A stretch of DNA of 64,000 bases from a virus, in IMG/VR virus record IMGVR_UViG_3300023180_005138, positions 32,001 to 96,000 of that record, one strand, 5' to 3'. The translations under genes and the position numbers were made by a program. The notes under the pieces were generated by a model. That model saw only the letters and a list, made by a program, of their open reading frames with translations, did not search any database and was not told where the DNA came from. Positions 7,968-55,339 of this stretch are shown piece after piece (position 1 is the first letter of the stretch; the number at the start of each line of letters is the position of its first letter).

Positions 7968-9065
7968 ATGTATTTTAACCAATCACAAACTGATTGGCGC
8001 ATTTCCCAATGCTGCCAATTTCACGATAAATCACTAGCTAAACGATACAATTTCGGAACAACGACAAAAACCTACGCTCTTAAAGACGGAGGTAAAGAAC
8101 GTGTTCAATCTAAAGCTATTGAAAATTGTACAAAACTAGTAGATATTCTTTCTACATATTTTACAAAACAACCTAAGAATTTGCGCTGTTTCAGAATCTC
8201 TTCTGAGCTGTTTCCTTGCTATACGCTAGAGTTTACAAAGCCTTGGTATGAAGAAATCATGCCAGAGATTTCTAAACTCCTAAAACAAGCAGGTGACATT
8301 GCTAAAGAGCATGAAATTCGTTTGTCTGTTCATCCAGGACAGTATACAGTTCTTGCATCTAATAATCCACAGGTAGTTGAAAACTCCGTTAAAGATCTAG
8401 AATACCATGCTTTATATGGTATTCTAATGGGTATCCCTGCTAAAGATTTTGCAATGAATATTCACCTTCAAGGGCTATATGGAGGCAAACACATTGATGG
8501 TATTAAGCGTTTCGCTACACATTTCGACTATCTTTCAGACTATGCTAAAGAATGTCTCACTGTTGAAAATGAAGACAAACCAAACGGATACGATATTGAA
8601 CATACACTAGAGCTTGCCCAACGAGTTCCTATTAGAACTTGCCTAGACATTCATCATTATGCTTGCCATCGTATGCGTACCTCTGAAAAAGCTATCAATT
8701 CATCAGGTAAAGAAGTTAATAAAAAGATTAGGGATGAAGTTACCCATATTACTGTGAATGATGATTTCTTCAAAGAAGCAGTAAAAACATGGGGTGATGT
8801 ACGTCCTCTATTTCATAAATCTCAGTCTTTTCCGATAGATAATGAAGATTACTGGATGAAGCCAAATGCACACTCTGATATGTATCATGATGAAGAGTTG
8901 ATGTCCTTGGCTATTCCAATGCTTGAGTATGCAGATTTTGAAGTAGAAGCTAAAAACAAAGAAGTTGCAGTGCAACACTTTTACAAATTTATACAAGACG
9001 AAGAGTCTATGGCAGGAGAAACCCTAACATGCAAAACTTTTGGAAATACTGGTGTAAAGCAATAG
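7968..9065 (+). CDS. uvsE: UV-damage endonuclease (UvsE/UVDE)
   Basis: FRISSELFP, RLSVHPGQYTVLAS, LTVENEDK, CLDIHHY and HSD metal-binding motifs. Confidence 0.9.
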   Translation: MYFNQSQTDWRISQCCQFHDKSLAKRYNFGTTTKTYALKDGGKERVQSKAIENCTKLVDILSTYFTKQPKNLRCFRISSELFPCYTLEFTKPWYEEIMPEISKLLKQAGDIAKEHEIRLSVHPGQYTVLASNNPQVVENSVKDLEYHALYGILMGIPAKDFAMNIHLQGLYGGKHIDGIKRFATHFDYLSDYAKECLTVENEDKPNGYDIEHTLELAQRVPIRTCLDIHHYACHRMRTSEKAINSSGKEVNKKIRDEVTHITVNDDFFKEAVKTWGDVRPLFHKSQSFPIDNEDYWMKPNAHSDMYHDEELMSLAIPMLEYADFEVEAKNKEVAVQHFYKFIQDEESMAGETLTCKTFGNTGVKQ

Positions 9066-9187
9066 GTCAAAAAGCGTATGAAGATAATAAACAAGCAGAT
9101 CGAGTAGCTATTATTCGTACCTGTTGGATTATATTACATATTATAACGTGTTTTGCAATTATCGCAAATGCGGTAAGACACTGGTAA
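9029..9187 (+). CDS. Small membrane protein (52 aa), absent from the ORF track
   Basis: SD GGAG then ATG at 9029: MQNFWKYWCKAIGQKAYEDNKQADRVAIIRTCWIILHIITCFAIIANAVRHW. One TM helix; resembles small proteins recalled from marine phages. Confidence 0.7.
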   Translation: MQNFWKYWCKAIGQKAYEDNKQADRVAIIRTCWIILHIITCFAIIANAVRHW

Positions 9188-9199
9188 TTTACATTTTAA

Positions 9200-9228
9200 T
9201 TGACATGTATTCTTCTTTATGTTAAAAT
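9200..9228 (+). promoter_or_regulatory. Consensus sigma70 promoter for the helicase-primase-polymerase operon
   Basis: TTGACA-N17-TAAAAT with TGn extended -10. Confidence 0.85.
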
Positions 9229-9250
9229 AAAGAAAAATAGGAGATTGACT

Positions 9251-10027
9251 ATGGCTAGGAAGCCAACAACAAACGAAATTTCAGAAACAAAAATTAGACA
9301 AGCTATCTGGATGGTAAAAGCAAATAAGACTAAAAAGTCTATTTGTGAACATCTTGGTATTGCTTACAACACAAAACGTCTCGACAATATTATTAACGAG
9401 TTTCAAGACAAAGAAAACAGACTAAAAGAGCTAAAAAAGAAACGCTCTAAAACTCCGTTTACCACAGAAGAAAAGAAAAGTATTGTAGACGATTATAATA
9501 ATGGCGAGAGTCAATCTGCCATTGCTACTCGTTTATATGCTTCTCCTCAGAGAATTAAAAACGTTCTAATCGAAATGAACGTTCCTATTCGCGCCCGATC
9601 TAAAACTGGCGAAGCAAAAGTAGATCACGTTGTTCAAGACTTAGACGTTATCTTTAAAAAAGAAGATAGAGTATTTATTCCAAAAATTAACGCTTTTGGA
9701 AAAGTAAAAGAAGTATTTGATGAAGAATGGATTGATTATCATAGACAGCCAGAACGTCGTCGATACGTAGAACTTCACGCACTAGAAGAAGCTAAGAAAC
9801 GGTATGGAGAAACGTTTGAAGGCCGTGAAGATGTACACTGGAATATTTACTGGCAATATGATAACGGAACTGAATGGAAAGAGTCTGCTATAAAGTATAA
9901 AATCGGTCAAGTAGAAAATATAATAGAAGAAACCGGTAGAGAGTACTATTCACTATTTGTAGACGGAGACTACGGACATTTTAGGAATGAAAAACGAGAA
10001 AATCTTTTCCCTGTAAAGAGTAATTAA
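9251..10027 (+). CDS. Hypothetical DNA-binding protein upstream of the helicase
   Basis: True start is likely MARKP (SD AGGAG; the track's TTG at 9200 is the -35 box). HTH-like segment FTTEEKKSIVDDYNNGESQSAIATRL. Confidence 0.6.
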   Translation: MARKPTTNEISETKIRQAIWMVKANKTKKSICEHLGIAYNTKRLDNIINEFQDKENRLKELKKKRSKTPFTTEEKKSIVDDYNNGESQSAIATRLYASPQRIKNVLIEMNVPIRARSKTGEAKVDHVVQDLDVIFKKEDRVFIPKINAFGKVKEVFDEEWIDYHRQPERRRYVELHALEEAKKRYGETFEGREDVHWNIYWQYDNGTEWKESAIKYKIGQVENIIEETGREYYSLFVDGDYGHFRNEKRENLFPVKSN

Positions 10028-11427
10028 TGGCACTAGACTTACAAAAACTTGCTATCCGAAGATTGTTGGATGGCAAAGACCCTGATTTTTATTCTAAATT
10101 AACCCCTGTGTACTTCACAGGGGCTAATTCTGCTTTGTTCAATAGAGTTCAAACATTTTACAAAGCTAATATTAGAATTCCAACTTTAGATGAGTTTCAG
10201 GTATTAAAGAAAGAATCCTCTCTTCAAGAGTATTTTGATACTCAAATTCTTGATGAAGATAATAAATATGATGAAGTTGCAGATGAATTTTTGGTCGGGC
10301 AACTACAGGATTACTATATCCGAGAAGAAACTATTGGATTCTTAGACAAATTTATTAATGATTTATCAGAACTAGAAAAAGTAGAAATAGTAGATCAACT
10401 ACAAACTCATTTATTAAATCTAAATAAGGCTCTTCCAATGACGGACGAGCTTTACGATGTTGCAGATCTAGATTTCTTTCCAAATCCTGATGATTTTATA
10501 TTACATCCGTCTGGATTAAGTGCTGAGTATGACTCTGCAAATGGAGGGCTTGCGCTACAAGAACTGGTATTACTTGGAGGGCGTCGAGGCTCTGGTAAAT
10601 CTATTATAAGTTTAAATCTAGCTATAAATAGGTTTTTACAAGGTAATACTATTGCATTTTTTACAATCGAAATGCGATATAAAGAAGTTTATGATCGTCT
10701 ACTAAGTATTCTTAGTGGAGTTCCTTTTCTATCTATTTTTAAGAATGAACTATCTAATGATCAAAAACTATCCCTTGTAAAAGCAAAGATTGATAATTTT
10801 TATGCTAAAGATTCAGTCATTGATGATTGGTACAAAGAATTATATTCTACAAAAGATTTTAAGAAGTTTGAGAAACGAGTAAAGTCGGAAAAACCTCCTT
10901 TACGAGACAATAGATTTTTTATTATTGATGATGAAGGACTGACCCTTAATCGTATTGATCATTATTGTAATATGTTTTCTAATCAATATGATAAATTTAA
11001 TATGGCTGTTGTAGATTATATTAATATTATTAAACATGACGACTCTAAAGACTGGAAAACACAAATTGTATTAGCAGAAGCTTTAAAAGGTATGAGTCGT
11101 AAATTTAATCTTACAATGCTGTCTCCTTATCAGATTGACGCAACTGGTGAAGCCCGATTTGCTAAAGGTATTCTTGATAGTGCAGATAGAAGTTTCGCTT
11201 TCTTTCCAGCAAAAGAAGGAGATGATAGAGCGCAAGAAAATAAGCTACAGATTCATACAACAAAGATTCGTAATGGTAAGCATATGAGTTTTGATGTTTA
11301 TATGGATTGGGCTTGTGTAAAAATTGACCCATCTCAAAGTCAGTCTATTAATGCCGCTCCGCATCGTGGAGCAATGTACGGAGACGATGAGAACGGAAAA
11401 TCATCAGAAGTGAGTCGCGACCTATGA
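10027..11427 (+). CDS. Replicative DnaB-like helicase (T5 D6-like)
   Basis: Walker A GGRRGSGKS, FFTIEM, VVDYINII, LSPYQID and KIRNG motifs. Confidence 0.9.
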   Translation: MALDLQKLAIRRLLDGKDPDFYSKLTPVYFTGANSALFNRVQTFYKANIRIPTLDEFQVLKKESSLQEYFDTQILDEDNKYDEVADEFLVGQLQDYYIREETIGFLDKFINDLSELEKVEIVDQLQTHLLNLNKALPMTDELYDVADLDFFPNPDDFILHPSGLSAEYDSANGGLALQELVLLGGRRGSGKSIISLNLAINRFLQGNTIAFFTIEMRYKEVYDRLLSILSGVPFLSIFKNELSNDQKLSLVKAKIDNFYAKDSVIDDWYKELYSTKDFKKFEKRVKSEKPPLRDNRFFIIDDEGLTLNRIDHYCNMFSNQYDKFNMAVVDYINIIKHDDSKDWKTQIVLAEALKGMSRKFNLTMLSPYQIDATGEARFAKGILDSADRSFAFFPAKEGDDRAQENKLQIHTTKIRNGKHMSFDVYMDWACVKIDPSQSQSINAAPHRGAMYGDDENGKSSEVSRDL

Positions 11428-31765: not shown

Positions 31766-32007
31766 GTAAAAATATTATATGGTCAAAAGACGATTGCATT
31801 TTTTGTCAAAAAGCAAAGTATGAATTAGAGTCAAGAAGCATTCCTTATGAAGAAAGAAAATTAGGAGATGGTTGGACAAAAGAACAGTTACTAGAAATAG
31901 TGCCGGATGCTAAAACTGTACCTCAAATATTCATGTGGGGTAAATATGTAGGAGGGTATACAGACCTACAAAATTACATTGAGAATCATGGAATGAACGT
32001 TGGCTAG
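31762..32007 (+). CDS. Glutaredoxin
   Basis: CIFC active site, TVPQIF and VGGYTDL. Confidence 0.92.
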   Translation: MSKNIIWSKDDCIFCQKAKYELESRSIPYEERKLGDGWTKEQLLEIVPDAKTVPQIFMWGKYVGGYTDLQNYIENHGMNVG

Positions 32008-47300: not shown

Positions 47301-50300
47301 ACCTCCCTCATCTTTAGAGTTAATTGGTAAAGTAATCTTATCATTACCTTTTAATCCTCCAAAGTCAAAAGTATCATTAACAGCAAGAACATGAGTACCA
47401 AAGTTTATGTCTTGAAGATTGTTTAATCCTGTCAAAGAAAGCTCAATATACCCATTAGCTTCTTCGTCAGCTCCAATATCAACGATATCATAACCAGTAA
47501 CAAGAATTTTTGATCTTCCGATTTCTGTAGTGAAACCGTTTTTACCCATTAGAGTAACAGACTCTCCTTCTAAGATATCTGTAAAATCATCCATATGTAC
47601 TTTTATAATATCCCTCGATGCTTGAGGGGTAGTGTTTGATACTAGCGATCTTGTATTAAAAGGAGGAGCATGGAAAAAGTCAGTTCTAGTCTCGTTAGAA
47701 TAACCGGTAAAATCATTTGTAAAACTAATATCAATATCAGTATAAACAGAGCCGTCTAAATCTCTTTTTGGTACTGCTCTTAGTTCAAACATAGGAGCAG
47801 GAGGAGCTTGTAGAGGAGAGAATAAATCCGTAAAAGCTAAAGGCTTATAATTAATTAATGTATCAGAATCTACATAAACATTAGAAATATATTCTCTAGC
47901 TTCAATGAATACTGTTTCGTCTGGCTCTCTTTTCATATTAATGATTCTAAAGAGTTTGTCAGATTGCGCAGTAAAAATATCAGTAGGATTAGCAATAGTT
48001 CCTATACTCCAAGTATCATACCTACTTGGTGTATGAAAAGTTCCCCACCCACCACTAAAAGCATTAAAAGTTTTAGATGGGTGATCCCATTTACTTAAAG
48101 CCTCAACTCTGATAACTTCGGCACCACCAGTAACATTTGCAGTATTAGATAGATTAAAACTAGTGTTACTAATTATATAAGCATCAACTAAACCAGAAGT
48201 GTGACTAGACACCCTAAGAATTAAAGGATCAGTATTAGCTGTAAAAAACGACGAAGTTATAGAAGGATTTCCTATATGTTCTAGGTATATAGCCGTATTT
48301 GATGCAGTAGAAGAGTTAGATACTATACCTCCATAACCCCACCCTACAGAAGTAGCTCTTTGAGATACCGCAATAATAGATCCTGGAGTAAGTTCAGAAG
48401 CTTCTATACCAGTTTTAAAGCCAACTTTTCTTCTAGAATATTTGGAATCAGCAATAACATATTGAGCAGCTCTAATTGCTTGACTTTTTCTAGCTACTCC
48501 ATCTAAATCAATTTTTGCAATATTCTCAATACTATTACGTTCTCTAAGAGCTTTTGGATCATCAATTCTTAAAACTTCTCTTCTAAAGTGTAATGTAGGG
48601 TCTATATAAGTAACATCTACACCAGTAATTAGAGACTCCTCTGATATACCAGAAATATTCATGGTCCCTGCTATAATATTTGTCTCATTAAATACTGCTG
48701 ATGGCATATTATCAGGCTTATCCTGATACATCATAATTTTACCACCAGAATAGAATAGTATAGATCTAGAACTAAGACTAACAATATTTATAGCATCCAT
48801 GACTTGTTTTTGGTCAGATATAACACCGTCGTATATAAAACGTCTCTCTAACACTCCAAGACCTGCGTCTATCCCCACTAAAACCTCTGTAACCTTTGTT
48901 TTAACTCCTCTAGGCTTATATCTATTAGTACCATCAGCCTCTGCTGCAACTCCTACAAATTCACCTGTAGTAACATCACAAGCATCATTATATACTGCAG
49001 CATCATAAAAAGAGAATTTATCAACATTTTCTTCTGGAATACCTAATCCATAAGATTTATTAGTTAGCATGTCATATATAATCCATGCAGGATTCTGAGT
49101 CCATGAGAATACAAACTGCCCGTCCCAAAGACCGTTATAAATAACAGGAGTGCCTGTTAGTAAGGTAGTTCCAGTTTTTTGTTGACTATAACCATAATTT
49201 GTTCTATCAGTGGCACTAACCTCTACCTCTCTCCAATCAATATCTCCATTCTCTAAAATAGGCTGATTATAATTAGAGGGTACTTTTACAATAAGACCTT
49301 TAACTATCTGAGTAATAGCAGGCATTCCGCCTTTATGTTCTGCGAAAGCTTTTAGTGCATATCCAACAGTAGCTGTTCTAGTATATGCAATAGGTTCTTC
49401 TATAATTTCGGTCCACCCTTGGAAAGTTACAGAGGCTTGTACTTTAGAAGACGCAGTATCAGCATTTGTTTTTTCAACTGTGAATTTATAACCAGCGTCA
49501 TCTATTTTATTAGTAGGAACTGCTAAGTATATGTCAAAAGAAAATGCAACGTTCGTCTTACCATTAATAGTTCTTGTTTGTGTAGCTAGTTCTTCTGTTC
49601 CATCTCTATTATATAATGTAACTTTTACCTCTATAGTTTCTGGAAGAACATCTCCTTTATCATTTTGTTTTTGTAAGCCTCCAATGATAAAATAAAACTT
49701 ACAGGCTGTTAATGCTGTAGGAGATGTATCTTGTTTATCAACAGCAGATCGAGGAACGCCATCAGCATTACCTTTTTTAAGTTCTACTGTTCCTTGTAGT
49801 CTCTGAGGGATAAAAGTATAGTCTCCAAATAAAGGAATGCGTTGTTGAGATATTGTTCCTGTATTAGTATAATAAAAGAACTTTTCATCATCTACTACTC
49901 CCTCTACTAATAAATCTTCAATATTACCTTCATTAAATTCTATATCTTGTGGTCCATTTGGGTTGATTCTATATACAGGACCTTCTCCTAAACCAAGGGT
50001 TAGTAATAAAATATCTGTAGAGAACAGGTTATTGGGAGTTTCGGTTCCGCTACCGCCGCCTTTTCCTCCACCGCCACCATTATGAACATAAACTCCATTA
50101 GCGATATAAGAGTGAACATGAGAAACTTTAAAGTTATAAACTTCTCCATCTCGTAGATATTCAATAGAATTAATTTTAGATAGTTGATTATCGTTTGTTA
50201 AAAGATTGTCACCAACCTTAAAATCTTTTAGCTCTTGATATGTACCATCTTCTTTTAACACCCAGTGATTAGGAGTAATATCAAGAGTACCCGCTTCGTG

Positions 50301-50531
50301 TTCGACGCGATATATTTTATCTATAGGGTGATAAAAAGTCTCAGTAACTGTGGATAAAACAGAATGTCCTAATTCGTTAAAAGCCCATACGGAATCTCCT
50401 ACTTCAATATCTGAAATAGGTTTAAATCCTGATTCTATAGAGATAAGAGTATCAGGAGCAAAACAACCTCCTCCTCCGCCTCCACCTTCTATTAAAGGAA
50501 CCGCAGTATCATCAATATAAAGCACTGTCAT
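44355..50531 (-). CDS. Central tail fibre / tip attachment protein (lambda gpJ-like) with N-terminal Hint domain
   Basis: 2058 aa; VKGLIVKVPSNY, WTQNPAWIIYDML..K.YGLG, FNETNII and FnIII-like repeats. Confidence 0.9.
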   Translation of the reverse strand: MTVLYIDDTAVPLIEGGGGGGGCFAPDTLISIESGFKPISDIEVGDSVWAFNELGHSVLSTVTETFYHPIDKIYRVEHEAGTLDITPNHWVLKEDGTYQELKDFKVGDNLLTNDNQLSKINSIEYLRDGEVYNFKVSHVHSYIANGVYVHNGGGGGKGGGSGTETPNNLFSTDILLLTLGLGEGPVYRINPNGPQDIEFNEGNIEDLLVEGVVDDEKFFYYTNTGTISQQRIPLFGDYTFIPQRLQGTVELKKGNADGVPRSAVDKQDTSPTALTACKFYFIIGGLQKQNDKGDVLPETIEVKVTLYNRDGTEELATQTRTINGKTNVAFSFDIYLAVPTNKIDDAGYKFTVEKTNADTASSKVQASVTFQGWTEIIEEPIAYTRTATVGYALKAFAEHKGGMPAITQIVKGLIVKVPSNYNQPILENGDIDWREVEVSATDRTNYGYSQQKTGTTLLTGTPVIYNGLWDGQFVFSWTQNPAWIIYDMLTNKSYGLGIPEENVDKFSFYDAAVYNDACDVTTGEFVGVAAEADGTNRYKPRGVKTKVTEVLVGIDAGLGVLERRFIYDGVISDQKQVMDAINIVSLSSRSILFYSGGKIMMYQDKPDNMPSAVFNETNIIAGTMNISGISEESLITGVDVTYIDPTLHFRREVLRIDDPKALRERNSIENIAKIDLDGVARKSQAIRAAQYVIADSKYSRRKVGFKTGIEASELTPGSIIAVSQRATSVGWGYGGIVSNSSTASNTAIYLEHIGNPSITSSFFTANTDPLILRVSSHTSGLVDAYIISNTSFNLSNTANVTGGAEVIRVEALSKWDHPSKTFNAFSGGWGTFHTPSRYDTWSIGTIANPTDIFTAQSDKLFRIINMKREPDETVFIEAREYISNVYVDSDTLINYKPLAFTDLFSPLQAPPAPMFELRAVPKRDLDGSVYTDIDISFTNDFTGYSNETRTDFFHAPPFNTRSLVSNTTPQASRDIIKVHMDDFTDILEGESVTLMGKNGFTTEIGRSKILVTGYDIVDIGADEEANGYIELSLTGLNNLQDINFGTHVLAVNDTFDFGGLKGNDKITLPINSKDEGGTGDAAGLLGFIGSDTRVTQYSANVTSYNASTNTIKILNDHSGSTTIHGLLPDPPFYIKVPQVIDHRYFANNSLYVTGTHLDLVRSNTATISNLIDNHVFKQPLGVSLRHTGFVEVFINGGTHSDFTLEKGLDNLSNSQVSINLSTLPTSISNLDIRVTANVYTVPILERGDNITWNAGNVYGISDSTFDIAAPSYDAALTANGIYRVTLSDNIKSNVATAFAINITEDPIGTVGNLDLGSKTFTFDYNHLRYRGLLNLANNGVYTTNTPVNTFIPLNLESGSKRVINRAEVGIHSVRARNVTKYGRRSPFTTKSVSVRPIPIKAVSNLAIAEELYKDSTLGVSTRIMVSFDHITGQEVTDYEISYKISGDIAGDLTSFNTVKVSAAGVDEDGKIRIKIDNIERGLSSNPNAIVVRVIPLNKNIRGSVAIKQASITGKLAPPKNVVNFAVGQASDTLVMIWRYVIDPITGDNYDLDLLEVQIKKVEGSIATDQATLLDLWPRAQEVAIVDARTNRVVIDIDQYGQYSYLVRTKDTSGIFSTDIVAASFTSQPVSFSKTYQIFSEDTPGVPLVVGVHNSNNTESAYASFYSSNTGGLSYAKADSLFDSSVVDNANGSSSGWSVIGGSPTDLRALENAEYVTQIRDLGNTLTASIQLELVGSQALKSTWLDYSEQIGGDQVTEAASGSGKLKDVDFSGTLGIGEILGSSNTGAATVTYHSENKTLVSGLQGSFPANVYGIVAIGNYDGDDSNANVFSLIAGVSNDNEIILGDSWYANGMSTGSNGFANLEVAGSSYKLVNLKQWLDLSEGATFYGTSGIVTTNTEVRYATTSPYFANGNVDSSAFTSVAGSDGFENFVTGARTFRYFQFRYKVNNSDPTQAELILDKFNYKITLDERLYTEIVTVDTLSKYVDYSQMAFTQIPKVTGSIVSASSNQLAQPQVIILDRGLGGANISVYFSNGVSAHNIGGPSGILPQVDFAVTGV
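50079..50465 (-). mobile_element. Mini-intein / Hint (BIL-like) domain, 129 aa, with no endonuclease and +1 Gly
   Basis: Block A CFAPDTLI, block B ITPNHWV, block F VYNFKV, block G YIANGVYVHN; flanked by G7 and G5KG3. Confidence 0.9.
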
Positions 50532-50548
50532 TCTGTATAATCTACCTT

Positions 50549-51265
50549 TTAATTTGTCCTAGTAATTTCATCTGACCTAGTATAAAATATGTCACTCACA
50601 GCGATTGTATCGTTTTCTCCGTGTTTTATAGTTTCTACGTGCCCACTTAACATTTGTCCTGCAACTCTAGGAGCACCATAAATCAGAGGAACATTAGCAT
50701 TAGTATCTGTAGTATTCTCTAAAGCATCAAACATATCATTATTTCTTCTTTGTTGGTTATTATTACTATTATTAACAGGCTCTGGAGGTTTCATCATCAT
50801 TTGCATTAGTCCAGCCAAAACCAGACCAATACCCATTTTAAGCAGCCCTCCTGCTGTCAGACCAGCGATACCGACCTTAGCACTAGCATCAAATGCTGCA
50901 AGCCCACCAGCGGCGAAGGCACCTCCAGTAAAAAGGGCGAGACCTATTAAAACTACTCCCAAAAGTACCATTAAAAGACCACTTTTTCCTCCTGACCCTT
51001 CTAAAATAGGGACTAAGGTAAGTTCTTCATGTTTTAATCTATTAAATTCATAGTCTTTTTTCTTTAATAGTTCTCCTTCTGGAGTTATTAAACTAATATT
51101 TTCTTTTAAACATCCTGTAGAGATAGTTTTTATATACCTTCTCATTTTAGGAAATAAAGCCACTAATGCATGACGTATATCAGAAATACTGTTTACGTCT
51201 ACTTGGTGAGACTTAACTCCTGTCATTTCTTGAAATGCGGGATGAAAGTTTAAAGTAACTAGCAT
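50549..51265 (-). CDS. Tail assembly protein I-like (ubiquitin-like beta-grasp plus TM-like segment)
   Basis: Ubl region ending LTLVPILEGSGG, then a Gly/Ala hydrophobic segment, then VPLIYG...G..LS. Confidence 0.82.
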   Translation of the reverse strand: MLVTLNFHPAFQEMTGVKSHQVDVNSISDIRHALVALFPKMRRYIKTISTGCLKENISLITPEGELLKKKDYEFNRLKHEELTLVPILEGSGGKSGLLMVLLGVVLIGLALFTGGAFAAGGLAAFDASAKVGIAGLTAGGLLKMGIGLVLAGLMQMMMKPPEPVNNSNNNQQRRNNDMFDALENTTDTNANVPLIYGAPRVAGQMLSGHVETIKHGENDTIAVSDIFYTRSDEITRTN

Positions 51266-51630
51266 TGTAAATCTGATTCCTCTAATGGTTTAAATCTTAG
51301 ATAATTTAAGTCATCTAACCAGTATAAATAATATTCCTCTTTTGGACTACCAACTATAAATTTATATTGTTTAAATATAGCAGAGTTCTTATCATGATCA
51401 CTAGGTAGTACGTCATGATAAGCAGTATGGCTATGAAAAATACCCCAGCAATCCTCTCCATACTTGAATAAGGCTCTGGGGTCTAAGACAAAACTTTCTG
51501 ATGGCACAGGACTAAGATTATCACAAGGAATATATTCAAAGTTTTTTGTAATAATTCCACAACATTCTACTTCAGTATTTTCATTAATATGTTTTTTAAA
51601 TCCTGCTACTAAGTCTTTGTACCTATCCAT
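51259..51630 (-). CDS. JAB/MPN+ metalloprotease (gpK N-terminal-like), standalone
   Basis: ECCG...N.SP.P..SF...FHSH......PS..D JAMM motif. Confidence 0.85.
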   Translation of the reverse strand: MDRYKDLVAGFKKHINENTEVECCGIITKNFEYIPCDNLSPVPSESFVLDPRALFKYGEDCWGIFHSHTAYHDVLPSDHDKNSAIFKQYKFIVGSPKEEYYLYWLDDLNYLRFKPLEESDLQC

Positions 51631-52064
51631 TTATATATCCCCATCGTATATTGTTTATAATAGTTACCATATGTAGCTATATGTGATTTGTGATTTTGTA
51701 ATATATGCAGTATCTTATTATTCCCTATATATAAACCACAATGATTAGTAATTGTAGAAGCACCAATAGTCATAGTTATAACATCAAATTCTTTAGGACT
51801 ATTAACTAACTGCCATCCATAATCTTTAGAAGATGCTTTTTTAATATTATCTTCATGAATTTGCTGATACCAGTAATCGTCTACTATATTACACCAGTCT
51901 CTAGTAGTATAGGGTATTTCTATTTCAAGTTCTTGTTTATAAATATACTTAACTAAATTAAAACAATCTATTCCAGTATTAGGGTCTAATCCTAAATGTT
52001 TAAAAGGAAGCCCTACGTATTTATCCCATTCCACCGCCATATACTTGCTATTTGATCTCTCCAA
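51609..52064 (-). CDS. NlpC/P60 tail assembly protein (gpK C-terminal-like)
   Basis: YVGLPF...GIDCFNLV...NHCGLYIGNNKILH. Confidence 0.85.
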   Translation of the reverse strand: MERSNSKYMAVEWDKYVGLPFKHLGLDPNTGIDCFNLVKYIYKQELEIEIPYTTRDWCNIVDDYWYQQIHEDNIKKASSKDYGWQLVNSPKEFDVITMTIGASTITNHCGLYIGNNKILHILQNHKSHIATYGNYYKQYTMGIYKWIGTKT

Positions 52065-52444
52065 TCTTGATTTAATACCTCAATTAAAGAACTTTTTCCT
52101 TCCGGTAAGTGAATAAATCTATTAGCCTCTATATATAAACCAAAATGAGTTGGTATTAAACGACCTGATTTAAATATTATTACATCATATTCTTGCAACT
52201 CTGTCAAGTAAACTTTTTTAGCAACAGTAGTTGCCCAATCTTCAAGTGTCTGAACGGATAAGCGCTTCATCCAACCTCTTCCATCTTTTGGCTTACCCCC
52301 TGGAAGACCTAAAGGTTCCCACAAACTTTCAAAAACATTAGAATTAAGCTCATTTTTATAGATGGAATCTATAAGAGTAATACAATTATTTTCTAAGTAA
52401 TTATGTTGAATTCCTAAGTATTTAAGATATTTTGATTCCATCAT
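52013..52444 (-). CDS. Second NlpC/P60 protein
   Basis: YLGIQH...NNCITLI...DVIIF...THFGLYI....FIH. Confidence 0.75.
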   Translation of the reverse strand: MMESKYLKYLGIQHNYLENNCITLIDSIYKNELNSNVFESLWEPLGLPGGKPKDGRGWMKRLSVQTLEDWATTVAKKVYLTELQEYDVIIFKSGRLIPTHFGLYIEANRFIHLPEGKSSLIEVLNQDWRDQIASIWRWNGINT

Positions 52445-53597
52445 ACCAATCTGCTAACTGAGGGACTATAGCTGTAAAATTTTCGTTTCTATTTCTGTCT
52501 AAAATTCCAGTATTTTTCTTAAAGATACACTCTAATTTTTCTCTGTCTTTTATCTCACCATTCATATATCTTAACCAGTCTGACATATGTTTAATATCAG
52601 ATATATGTAAATCTTTTTTGTGAGTCTCTATAAAATTTTTATAATACCTCATTATTTTTTGCTTTTCTTCAGTAGGTAAAACTTGCAAAGAAATAGAAGG
52701 GGGAGTAACTAGCGTTGTACCAAAGATAGGTATATTTTTCTTTTTACCCCATAAAAGTAAATCAGGCATAGAATAAATAGTTAATATAGATACGACTGAA
52801 CTAATAGAGGTAACATAGGGTTTAACCATATCTATATTAGACTCAAAGTCTTCCCAAACTAACTCTTTTCTAACATATTCTGTAACTTCTTTATAACCAT
52901 CACAACTCGTCCAGAGGTTGACTTTCTTAAACTGTTTCCATAAAGATACTAGATCATATTCTTTAAATTTTAAAATAGATAGGTTAGTGTTATACTGAAC
53001 ATTTATATCAGTTTTACCCTTAGAAATTAAGTACTCCAGTATTTTATAATGTTGCTCTAATACTAAAGGCTCTCCTCCTGCAAAATATAAAACTTCTAAA
53101 TTAGGATATATTAACTCTAATCCTTCCCAAAACAAATCATTATCCCACTGCTCTTCTTTTTTACCTTGAATTGAAAATAAGTTTTTACCTTCTTTTATCC
53201 AAGCAGTACTAGAAGCAGGACCGCAAGTTCTGCACCTAAAATTACAAGTATTTCCTAGTCTAAAATCTATATAAGGAGGGGGAGGAGGGGTAAGGGTTTT
53301 TTGTAGGTACTCTTTGTGACTCCAAAAATTATTAGCGTTATTCTTTGGATTTTCAATAACACCTAATTCATCTTTTTTAAAACAAGGATTATAACACTGT
53401 TCTGGTATTTTCCCTTCTAAAAAAGATTTTCTTAATTCTATGTACGGAGTTCCGTGCCACACATCCATAATAGGTTGTGTATTATCTCCTAAAGAATCTT
53501 TATTTGAAAAAGAATCTGAAAAGCAACAGGCTTTATACTCCCCTCTCATATTACCATGCATATGAATCCACGGTAATATACATCCTTTTATTGCCAT
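52422..53597 (-). CDS. Radical SAM protein (N-terminal twitch-like) embedded in the tail operon
   Basis: GCILPW.H...ACC; DFRLGNTCNFRCRTC; FAGGEPL; YNTN. Confidence 0.88.
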   Translation of the reverse strand: MAIKGCILPWIHMHGNMRGEYKACCFSDSFSNKDSLGDNTQPIMDVWHGTPYIELRKSFLEGKIPEQCYNPCFKKDELGVIENPKNNANNFWSHKEYLQKTLTPPPPPYIDFRLGNTCNFRCRTCGPASSTAWIKEGKNLFSIQGKKEEQWDNDLFWEGLELIYPNLEVLYFAGGEPLVLEQHYKILEYLISKGKTDINVQYNTNLSILKFKEYDLVSLWKQFKKVNLWTSCDGYKEVTEYVRKELVWEDFESNIDMVKPYVTSISSVVSILTIYSMPDLLLWGKKKNIPIFGTTLVTPPSISLQVLPTEEKQKIMRYYKNFIETHKKDLHISDIKHMSDWLRYMNGEIKDREKLECIFKKNTGILDRNRNENFTAIVPQLADWYDGIKIS

Positions 53598-55339
53598 TAC
53601 TGTTTTGGTACCTGTCTTCCTGTTCCTGGAAACCCTCCAAAATGAATTGTATTATTTCTAACTCTACAGGCTTCATATGATTTACCACATTCATCATCTT
53701 TTATTGATGCTGCGATAGTATTATTAGCAAATATAGGATTTGTATTAGCATAACGAGTCGGAAAAGTACCTGGTATAGCACTAGCGGCAGCAGGAGGGGT
53801 AGGAGGTCCAGGATATTGACACTCAGTTCCTTTATACTCCCATTGACACGTATTTTTATAAAATTTTCTTTTTGGAAGACGTAGTTTAAAATACTGTAAC
53901 CAACTAGTTAAAGTAAATTCTGCAATTTGCTCATTTAGAGTAGGCATTTCTAAAATTTTAAATACATCTTTTACATAGGCTTCTGGATCATAATCATCGT
54001 TTACGATATAAAGGTTTTGTGTTTCTGCTGCATTAGCTAGAGGGGCACTCAAAAATAAAATTCTTTCTTCTTGAATATCTTGAATAGTTCTAGTAGCAGT
54101 TCCAAATTGATTTTTAACATTATCGCCTACTCTATAAGGAGCTGCGTTTACTACAGATATGACATTTCCACTAATATAATCTATACTAGAGTGTTCTGGC
54201 CAGTATTCAAGATGTGTTGCAAAAGTAGACTTAATTTCTACAACTCCTCCAAGAAAATCTCTCGTATCGTATTTAAGTTGTTCCCAGTCTTCCCCTAATG
54301 TCTGTGCTCTTGAATATCCCCAAGCTGAGTTTGTAGTTCCATAATAAGAATCTACGACATCTTGATTAAAATGAACATTACCTACAACTGTCGCCGGGTC
54401 AAGACCCCACACCATTTCACCATTTACCATAGCATGACAAGAGTTAGACGTAACATTTCCTACTAAGTATGGATTTTCTACAAGAGTAGTAACAACATTA
54501 TCATAGTTAGATACCGAAATACTAACTCTATCAATACTTCCATCCGAAGAAGTAGAAATACCAGAAGATTCTACTGGATAAGGAAGATAACTCTCTCCTG
54601 CAAAAGAAACATTGTAGGTTAAATCAGAAAAATTATCACCAATTACTTCTGCTATTCTCCACGGCATGTCTACAGGCCAAGCGTATCCGGCACCCTCTCC
54701 AGAAGGATTACCGTTTTCATTAGGAGGATACCACTCTCCGGGGTAATAAAAAGTATATAGTCTTACTACAGGAGGTTGAGTAAATGCATGTCGTGCTCTA
54801 ATAAAAGGGCTAACATTTATTGCTGAAATTGTAGCACTAGAAGATTGTACTGCGTTTGCAGCTATTAAAGTGCCTGTTGAAGAAGCAAAACTAAAAGCAT
54901 TAGTATTACCCGTTTGTCTAAATACTTTAATAGTTGATTGACCTGGAAGAGTGCTATCAAAAAATTGAATCTTATTATTTCCTTCATGATAGGTCCAATC
55001 ATTAGGATAAGCTATTTGTTCATTAACATAGACACTAAGTTCTGTAGCATAGGTAGGAATTGTCAAACCAGTTAGCGTAACATACTCTGTGCTTGAAGTT
55101 GCAGCAAATGATTGTATTGAAACAACATTAGAAAGTAAATAATGATTACTGTATACAGATTCTCCTACAGTAAATTCTTGAAAAGCATTAGCAACTTTAA
55201 CTTTAATATTACTTGTAGAAGGATCTACATTAGCAACATACCCAAAAGTTTCAGAACTGGCACCAATAATATTGTTTCCATTCTTAAATGGGGTTGTATC
55301 ATTAACTGTTAAAATATAATCATAAAGTCTAGTAGACAT
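53597..55339 (-). CDS. Minor tail protein L-like (Fe-S-binding C-terminus)
   Basis: YLPYPVE, LPKRKF...CQWEYKGTECQY...CGK...AC..R...FGGFPG. Confidence 0.82.
   Translation of the reverse strand: MSTRLYDYILTVNDTTPFKNGNNIIGASSETFGYVANVDPSTSNIKVKVANAFQEFTVGESVYSNHYLLSNVVSIQSFAATSSTEYVTLTGLTIPTYATELSVYVNEQIAYPNDWTYHEGNNKIQFFDSTLPGQSTIKVFRQTGNTNAFSFASSTGTLIAANAVQSSSATISAINVSPFIRARHAFTQPPVVRLYTFYYPGEWYPPNENGNPSGEGAGYAWPVDMPWRIAEVIGDNFSDLTYNVSFAGESYLPYPVESSGISTSSDGSIDRVSISVSNYDNVVTTLVENPYLVGNVTSNSCHAMVNGEMVWGLDPATVVGNVHFNQDVVDSYYGTTNSAWGYSRAQTLGEDWEQLKYDTRDFLGGVVEIKSTFATHLEYWPEHSSIDYISGNVISVVNAAPYRVGDNVKNQFGTATRTIQDIQEERILFLSAPLANAAETQNLYIVNDDYDPEAYVKDVFKILEMPTLNEQIAEFTLTSWLQYFKLRLPKRKFYKNTCQWEYKGTECQYPGPPTPPAAASAIPGTFPTRYANTNPIFANNTIAASIKDDECGKSYEACRVRNNTIHFGGFPGTGRQVPKQ

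Follow-up and report, generated by a model that had tools for sequence, protein, structure and literature searches.

The tail-tip (central fibre) protein J encoded in a 64,000-nucleotide stretch of phage DNA (the window; positions 32,001 to 96,000 of IMG/VR virus record IMGVR_UViG_3300023180_005138) carries close to its N terminus a 129-residue Hint domain of the bacterial intein-like (BIL) kind, which sits in a flexible Gly/Lys linker between a short leader and the J body. The record is 117,378 bp long, is rated complete, has 34% G+C, and represents an uncultured phage of marine type. We lean towards the view that the domain is a BIL-like cassette that excises itself from J through a thioester and asparagine cyclization. 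Self-excision of some kind can be expected with good confidence, and the chance that re-ligation of the leader to J is the main outcome appears to be slightly under even.

The J homologue (P0001) is laid out as leader, Hint domain, Gly/Lys run and J body, and these parts were verified by translating sub-ranges of the gene. Its identity is indicated by matches to phrog_31 (4e-91), Phage-tail_3 (PF13550) and FNIII-A_GpJ (PF24801), in agreement with a preliminary description of this DNA that had named the host as the central tail protein gpJ. The same description had reported at 50079–50531 a small Hint domain with Cys1, TxxH, His-Asn, Gly at +1 and no endonuclease, and every one of these elements was recovered in place on translation. 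Residues 1–151 of this lambda-J-like protein correspond to window positions 50079–50531 on the minus strand and comprise exactly the leader and the Hint domain. The leader together with its glycines (…VPLIE followed by Gly7) makes up 22 residues (50466–50531), and the J body begins TETPNNLFSTD… directly after the C-side Gly/Lys run. The size of the domain leaves no room for a homing endonuclease. The J open reading frame (ORF) contains no internal start codon after the Hint domain, so that its removal or retention has to take place at the protein level. A read-through fusion of J with the preceding gpI gene was excluded, as gpI stops at TAA and the ATG of J follows 17 nucleotides on in another frame. 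A profile search of the 117-kb genome found no second Hint copy.

The PT-HINT profile (PF07591) scored 37.5 bits on the N-terminal 164 residues, 32.9 bits on the whole of J and 37.8 bits on the genome, with a cut-off of 27.7, and the Pfam Hint profile scored 36.3 bits on the same 164 residues (cut-off 29.7). Intein_splicing (PF14890) fell just under its cut-off (35.5 against 35.8 bits), and of the NCBIfam models TIGR01445 was below threshold (18.2 against 24.5) and TIGR01443, which describes the intein C-terminal region, above it (20.2 against 15.6). The nearest solved sequence in a search of PDB sequences is the Clostridium thermocellum BIL domain 2LWY (E 2.9e-6), followed by the gp41-1 and NpuDnaB inteins. 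The block F hexapeptide VYNFKV is common to the J Hint and 2LWY, with Asn at the position where the gp41-1 and NpuDnaB inteins have Asp. AlphaFold, run with 15 relatives, gave predicted local distance difference test (pLDDT) values mostly of 85–95 for residues 21–152 (71–95 per 10-residue block), and Foldseek matched the model to HINT folds only, with Tetrahymena BUBL BIL2 (6Y75, 2e-11) on top, then DnaB mini-inteins, then 2LWY (TM-score 0.87); the E-values for 2LWY, 6Y75 and 4O1R all fell between 1e-10 and 1e-11. Taken together, these matches go well past what chance would give. Profile, HINT fold, Cys1/TxxH/His-Asn and the lack of both a +1 nucleophile and an endonuclease are those of type-A BIL domains. 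By profile and predicted fold the J Hint is a type-A BIL/PT-HINT domain with predicted activity and not a canonical intein, which bears out the BIL likeness put forward earlier. Canonical class-1 inteins have Cys, Ser or Thr at +1, a position held here by Gly152, and are spread sporadically in conserved functional sites; the J site is a length-variable Gly/Lys linker. BUBL-type BILs directly follow a ubiquitin-like (Ubl) domain; only a 15-residue hairpin and Gly7 precede the J Hint, and the ubiquitin-like thioester suggested earlier would be carried by this short motif, which lacks the ubiquitin fold.

A search with residues 1–260 returned 587 proteins, and among the 120 matches listed 63 carry the domain in a total of 73 copies. 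Cys1, the Thr and His of block B and the terminal Asn are invariant (73/73), and the penultimate position holds His in 65 copies and Ser in 8. At −1, 68 of the 73 have Gly; +1 is occupied by Lys (36), Gly (32), Arg (2), Ala (2) or Thr (1), never by Cys or Ser; a Lys is always found at +1 or +6. Block F has Asn in 60 of 64 J-borne copies. Within clade A, to which the window belongs, GGGGGK directly follows the Hint domain in 19 of 20 clusters and GGGAGK in one, unlike the N-side run, which varies from three to seven Gly. The ratio of nonsynonymous to synonymous substitution rates (dN/dS), calculated by the Nei-Gojobori method from 12 clade-A genes, is about 0.15 for both the Hint domain and the leader, against 0.19 for the J body; by this measure the Hint domain is under purifying selection.

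J homologues lacking the Hint domain start with the same kind of leader, followed by an uninterrupted Gly/Lys run. The N terminus of Hint-less P0053 reads MAIIYIEDKAVPLIEGAKGGGG…KEDPN, and many others read …VPVIGGAKGGKGGGGG…EDPN. In an alignment of 80 sequences of both kinds at least 90% have the leader Pro, all have the Ile two positions further along, and the Gly, Gly-Gly and Lys that follow each reach at least 90%; with or without Hint, little or no variation is seen at the leader positions 9–11 residues ahead of the junction, and the C-side GGGGGKGGGSG run aligns with the Gly/Lys run of the Hint-less proteins. The Gly flanks and the leader are therefore properties of J, and the Hint domain is a clean insert. 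Judged by its distribution the domain is dispensable and not needed for tail assembly as such, since P0053 in the window's own clade and a clade of 56 further clusters do without it. The conservation of the leader in these comparisons fits a leader that still matters after processing.

In a FastTree phylogeny of 700 J-body residues (118 rows), two changes of Hint presence suffice, which is a lower bound in a sample enriched for Hint-bearing proteins; the two are the Hint-less clade of 56 clusters, which is nested, and P0053 inside clade A. When the search was repeated with the J body alone, 21 informative clusters reached 60% identity or more, and all but one of them (20) carry the domain; P0266 is N-terminally truncated and was left out of the 21. 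In a tree built from the Hint domain only, the J clades reappear (A at 99, B at 100, and also D and the lambda-like group), indicating that the domain diverged together with its host gene. On these trees the cassette is old, conserved in this phage lineage and inherited with J. This distribution, the invariant catalytic residues and the low dN/dS are not those of a sporadic, decaying insertion, an outcome that the preliminary description had considered. An 8-nucleotide repeat, GGTGGAGG, flanks the domain, and P0053 demonstrates that its loss is viable; retention through deep divergence in a linker where such deletion is harmless hints at more than parasitism.

Comparison of two IMG/VR phages, L004 and L005, revealed DNA that is 95–100% identical on both sides of the Hint domain and only 67–80% identical across the cassette. 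The divergent stretch covers J nucleotides 61 to about 440 (L004:8061-8440 against L005:1584-1963), with the Hint domain bounded by two runs of Gly codons. As read from this alignment, related J genes swap the cassette through recombination within their Gly-codon runs. Tandem Hint domains were also found: some J proteins and a tape measure carry two, and the metagenomic protein P0079, of 1285 residues, has seven, which stand back to back at residues 134–1222 with linkers of one to three residues (K, KG, KGG). In the J homologues P0112 and P0055 the leader motif (…IKGAGGGG or …IHGAGGGG) recurs before and after each Hint domain, a pattern that resembles the duplication footprint of leader-plus-Hint units and points to unequal recombination in the Gly runs. 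In yet another J homologue (L016:4167-10406) two weak, partial Hint-profile matches, perhaps spurious or a remnant, lie in the J body at residues 1240–1343.

A phmmer search of the full library with the Hint domain alone gave 5990 matches at E ≤1e-3 and 487 at ≤1e-10. The best 143 new proteins mostly contain two to five tandem Hint copies, and the wider family also includes further J proteins and tape measures. Cys1 is present in 281 of 284 copies; among the 271 full copies having a +1 residue, this residue is Lys in 187, and −1 is Gly in 167. The junction of Gly, Cys…His-Asn and Lys or Gly is thus a trait of the subfamily as well as of the J site, which probably explains, as far as sequence comparison goes, why the J linker hosts the domain. 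The metagenomic proteins P0126, P0125 and P0134 are secreted proteins that combine a signal peptide, three to five KGG-linked Hint domains, a membrane segment and Tim44-like domains, an architecture that appears widespread. In deposited phage genomes all matches to the Hint domain were inteins of helicase, terminase or polymerase genes, and no J carrying Hint was found; identity to the J-body relatives in that set does not exceed about 25%.

Following translation, Cys23 would attack the carbonyl of Gly22 in an N–S acyl shift aided by Thr86 and His89, and Asn151 would cyclize and free the α-amine of Gly152, allowing the 129-residue domain to leave J. The thioester on Gly22 could then be attacked by the freed Gly152 amine, giving a continuous chain of leader, Gly run and J as in the Hint-less relatives, or by water, in which case the leader would be lost and J would start with a lambda-like Gly/Lys N terminus. 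Trans-esterification through +1 is ruled out for this J by its sequence, as no Cys, Ser or Thr is present there. In its passages on BIL domains without a +1 nucleophile, PMC7664689 (citing Amitai 2003 and Aranko 2013) describes N- and C-cleavage and gives ligation without nucleophilic side chains as possible. Ligation is argued for here by the invariance of Cys1 and block B, although C-cleavage alone would free J, and by a leader that is equally constrained in Hint-bearing and Hint-less J.

Several points weigh against a self-excising cassette that restores the leader to J. The phage is uncultured, and each chemical step is one that we infer from sequence. Purifying selection and invariant catalytic residues are equally expected of a purely selfish excising element, and the small number of changes on the J tree comes from the enriched sample described above. 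The leader hairpin was predicted at low confidence (pLDDT 53–59), and AlphaFold gave no confident docking of the leader on J, with the J body below 50 in the first model, which leaves a role of the leader in mature J unproven. Lambda J starts with a Gly/Lys-rich stretch. To our knowledge it has neither leader nor Hint domain, so a leader-less J would be functional. This start of lambda J and the bias of BIL domains towards cleaved products are the arguments for cleavage.

The passages of PMC7664689 that cite Amitai 2003 state that BIL domains yield mainly cleaved and not spliced products, and this predominance favors a maturation device that only cleaves, in which cyclization of Asn151, with or without hydrolysis of the thioester, would remove leader and Hint domain together and mature J would start at Gly152 with oligo-Gly/Lys. 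Leader and Hint would then act before assembly only, for example by delaying trimerization or entry into the tip. In line with this, the sequence after the Hint domain (GGGGGKGGGSGTETPNNLFSTD…) aligns with the very start of J homologues, and the C-side GGGGGK is the near-fixed flank in clade A (19/20). However, C-cleavage would not need the invariance of Cys1 and block B that is seen in 73/73 copies, the leader is as well conserved in Hint-less as in Hint-bearing J, and the Hint-less relatives, including P0053 from the same clade, need no such device. We regard cleavage as the sole outcome as possible but unlikely.

The gene that precedes J encodes a gpI homologue with a Ubl head, and a stand-alone JAB/MPN peptidase precedes gpI (Table 1). 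The equivalent of lambda gpK is split at 51259–52444 (minus) into the JAB gene and two overlapping NlpC/P60 ORFs at 51609–52064 and 52013–52444, the second with a partial NlpC match. A twitch-domain radical-SAM gene (52422–53597, minus; NF033640, 1.3e-93) lies between the NlpC genes and a gpL homologue of 580 residues (53597–55339, minus), in which the Phage_tail_L match spans only residues 432–513 and roughly the first 400 residues carry no assignment. JAB, gpI and two NlpC genes are present in all 45 Hint-bearing loci and likewise in the Hint-less loci whose upstream region is covered. Replacement of JAB by the Hint domain was rejected because the two co-occur in all of these Hint-bearing loci, and a tie of the radical-SAM gene to Hint was rejected because many Hint-bearing loci (L016-L019, L022-L044) lack the gene and many Hint-less ones have it. 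In a clade of 43–45% identity (L022-L043) about 530 nucleotides separate gpI and J, and several of its contigs have J as two ORFs (for example 7968–10931 plus a later frame), which could stem from an additional small gene, splitting of J or errors of assembly. The preliminary description had put the domain forward as a possible domesticated maturation switch, which we now regard as speculation: the domain is dispensable, and JAB, Ubl-gpI and NlpC are independent of it. The Hint-less clade, the optional tandem amplification and this independence from the neighboring genes argue against an essential switch.

Table 1. Positions in the window of J, its parts and the adjoining tail-tip genes
Feature	Position	Strand	Basis
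Tail-tip / central fibre protein J homologue P0001, 2058 aa	44355-50531	minus	ORF list, translation
Leader, residues 1-15 (MTVLYIDDTAVPLIE), predicted beta-hairpin, VPxIxG motif	50487-50531	minus	translation, alignment, AlphaFold
N-side Gly7 run, residues 16-22; Gly22 is the -1 residue and putative thioester carrier	50466-50486	minus	translation
HINT domain, 129 aa, type-A BIL / PT-HINT, residues 23-151, CFAP…YVHN	50079-50465	minus	Pfam, PDB sequence search, AlphaFold, Foldseek
Cys23, block A nucleophile	50463-50465	minus	translation, conservation
Block B TPNH, residues 86-89 (Thr86, His89)	50265-50276	minus	translation, conservation
Block F YNFKVS, Asn133 at the Asp position of class-1 inteins	50121-50138	minus	alignments
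Block G His150-Asn151, terminal Asn is the cyclizing residue	50079-50084	minus	translation, conservation
C-side run GGGGGKGGGSG, residues 152-162; +1 is Gly152, then Lys157	50046-50078	minus	translation
gpI homologue, Ubl head, Gly/Ala-rich hydrophobic segments, C-domain	50549-51265	minus	phrog_32 6.5e-28, translation
gpI Ubl head end VPILEGSGG	50987-51013	minus	motif
gpI C-domain motif VPLIYG	50675-50692	minus	motif
Stand-alone JAB/MPN peptidase (equivalent of gpK N-half), HSH…S..D motif	51259-51630	minus	PF14464, 7.7e-8; translation

The loose motif [VI]P[LIVFY][LIVF].G occurs at four sites in the 24.8 k residues of the window frames, two in gpI, one in the J leader and one late in J, and its strict form, followed by G..G, is confined there to two of these sites, the gpI Ubl tail and the J leader. 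No tight covariation of the two was seen among the phages, only the shared general motif. Iyer et al. 2006 (PMC1779556) predicted cleavage of gpI by JAB behind the C-terminal Gly of the Ubl. In the lambda virion gpI is present from residue 101 onward, and its β-strands thread through gaps of the gpJ hub domains (PMC11101478); by analogy, the VPxIxG strand of the J leader could dock like the gpI strands.

The resemblance of the J leader VPLIEGGG to the gpI Ubl tail VPILEGSGG, with the strict motif confined to these two places, is one ground for considering a thioester-driven conjugation like that of BUBL BIL2, the top Foldseek match, which forms an isopeptide with the ε-amine of Lys and dispenses Ubl without ATP (PMC8616854 section 2.4). 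The leader would be passed from Gly22 to Lys157 or to a Lys of another tail protein as an ATP-free isopeptide, with a functional tie to the neighboring Ubl-gpI and JAB genes, and the Lys that is always found at +1 or +6, as well as the +1 Lys in 187/271 copies of the wider family, could serve as acceptor. The leader is, however, only 15 residues long and not a Ubl fold, the Foldseek E-values of inteins are equally good, the same Lys and leader are present in Hint-less J, JAB and Ubl-gpI are there regardless of Hint, and gpI tail and J leader do not covary tightly. Such conjugation therefore seems very unlikely. Most unlikely, too, is a Hint domain that acts as an ATP-free ligase of tip assembly and staples the tip covalently by handing the leader Gly thioester to the amine of another chain; candidate acceptors are Lys157 and Gly152 of an adjacent J subunit and lysines of gpI and the tape measure. 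If it were true, JAB and Ubl-gpI, which shares the VPxxEGxGG motif, would together with it form a minimal virus-encoded set for ubiquitin-like conjugation and deconjugation. Of what had been suggested earlier, there is experimental precedent among BIL domains for splicing by aminolysis and for thioester-to-amine transfer (PMC7664689, in the passages cited above; PMC8616854 section 2.4), whereas transfer to another tail protein is speculation.

The tandem arrays of two to seven copies in relatives could mean structural use, and a Hint domain that is no longer processed would remain on J as an N-terminal structural module or as an inert relic. A relic would decay, yet the catalytic residues are invariant over deep divergence with a dN/dS of 0.15, and the domain sits in a length-variable Gly linker from which it can be deleted harmlessly, as in P0053; we consider an unprocessed domain highly improbable. 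Canonical class-1 splicing through a +1 nucleophile has a negligible chance of applying here despite 34% identity to Vibrio phage helicase inteins, a TIGR01443 score above cut-off and intein-less alleles at the same site, as +1 is Gly here and Lys, Gly, Arg, Ala or Thr but never Cys or Ser in the 73 copies, Intein_splicing and TIGR01445 score below cut-off, block F has Asn and not Asp, and the insertion site is a low-complexity linker and not a conserved functional site.

Two decades after BIL domains became known, their natural roles and side-chain-free ligation chemistry are poorly understood. A literature search found no paper on a Hint or BIL domain in phage J or other tail proteins. The family to which the domain belongs is known, and what marks it as a new variant within that family is the combination of host site, fixed flanks, tandem habit and exchange as a cassette. 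It provides a BIL subfamily at a defined place in a structural phage protein, with near-fixed flanks, natural insert-free controls and hundreds of natural variants, so that the question of whether a Hint domain splices in nature by amine attack becomes directly testable with a small construct. For annotation, gene callers and structure pipelines that do not recognize the cassette will give wrong sizes for J in a large group of uncultured marine siphophages. A Gly-flanked, endonuclease-free cassette that is swapped between genes might also supply compact, self-removing protein tags.

Compared with the type-A BIL domain 2LWY, the J Hint has the same HINT fold, Cys1, TxxH and His-Asn and likewise lacks a +1 nucleophile and an endonuclease. 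The hosts of type-A BILs are secreted bacterial or toxin proteins, whereas the J Hint is hosted by a phage tail-tip N terminus, is known from sequence alone, is almost always flanked by Gly at −1 and Gly or Lys at +1 within Gly runs, and belongs to a family frequently found in tandem arrays. As in Tetrahymena BUBL BIL2 (6Y75/6TMM), the N-extein ends in Gly-Gly and an amine is the only acceptor, not a thiol or hydroxyl (PMC8616854), but the J N-extein is a 15-residue hairpin plus Gly7 that is not ubiquitin-like, the identity is only 22% and the acceptor lysine is putative. The class-1 mini-inteins (NpuDnaB 4O1R, gp41-1 6QAZ and the Vibrio phage helicase inteins) share the fold, blocks A, B and G at 28–34% identity, and the occurrence of insert-free alleles at the same site. 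Unlike them, the J Hint has no Cys, Ser or Thr at +1, has Asn instead of Asp in block F, resides in a low-complexity linker and diverges with its host gene instead of being sporadic. The surrounding genes have the same order and families as the lambda set of gpK (JAB and NlpC), gpI (Ubl and TAPI-C) and gpJ, with the difference that gpK is split here into JAB and two NlpC genes and that the J leader motif resembles the two gpI motifs.

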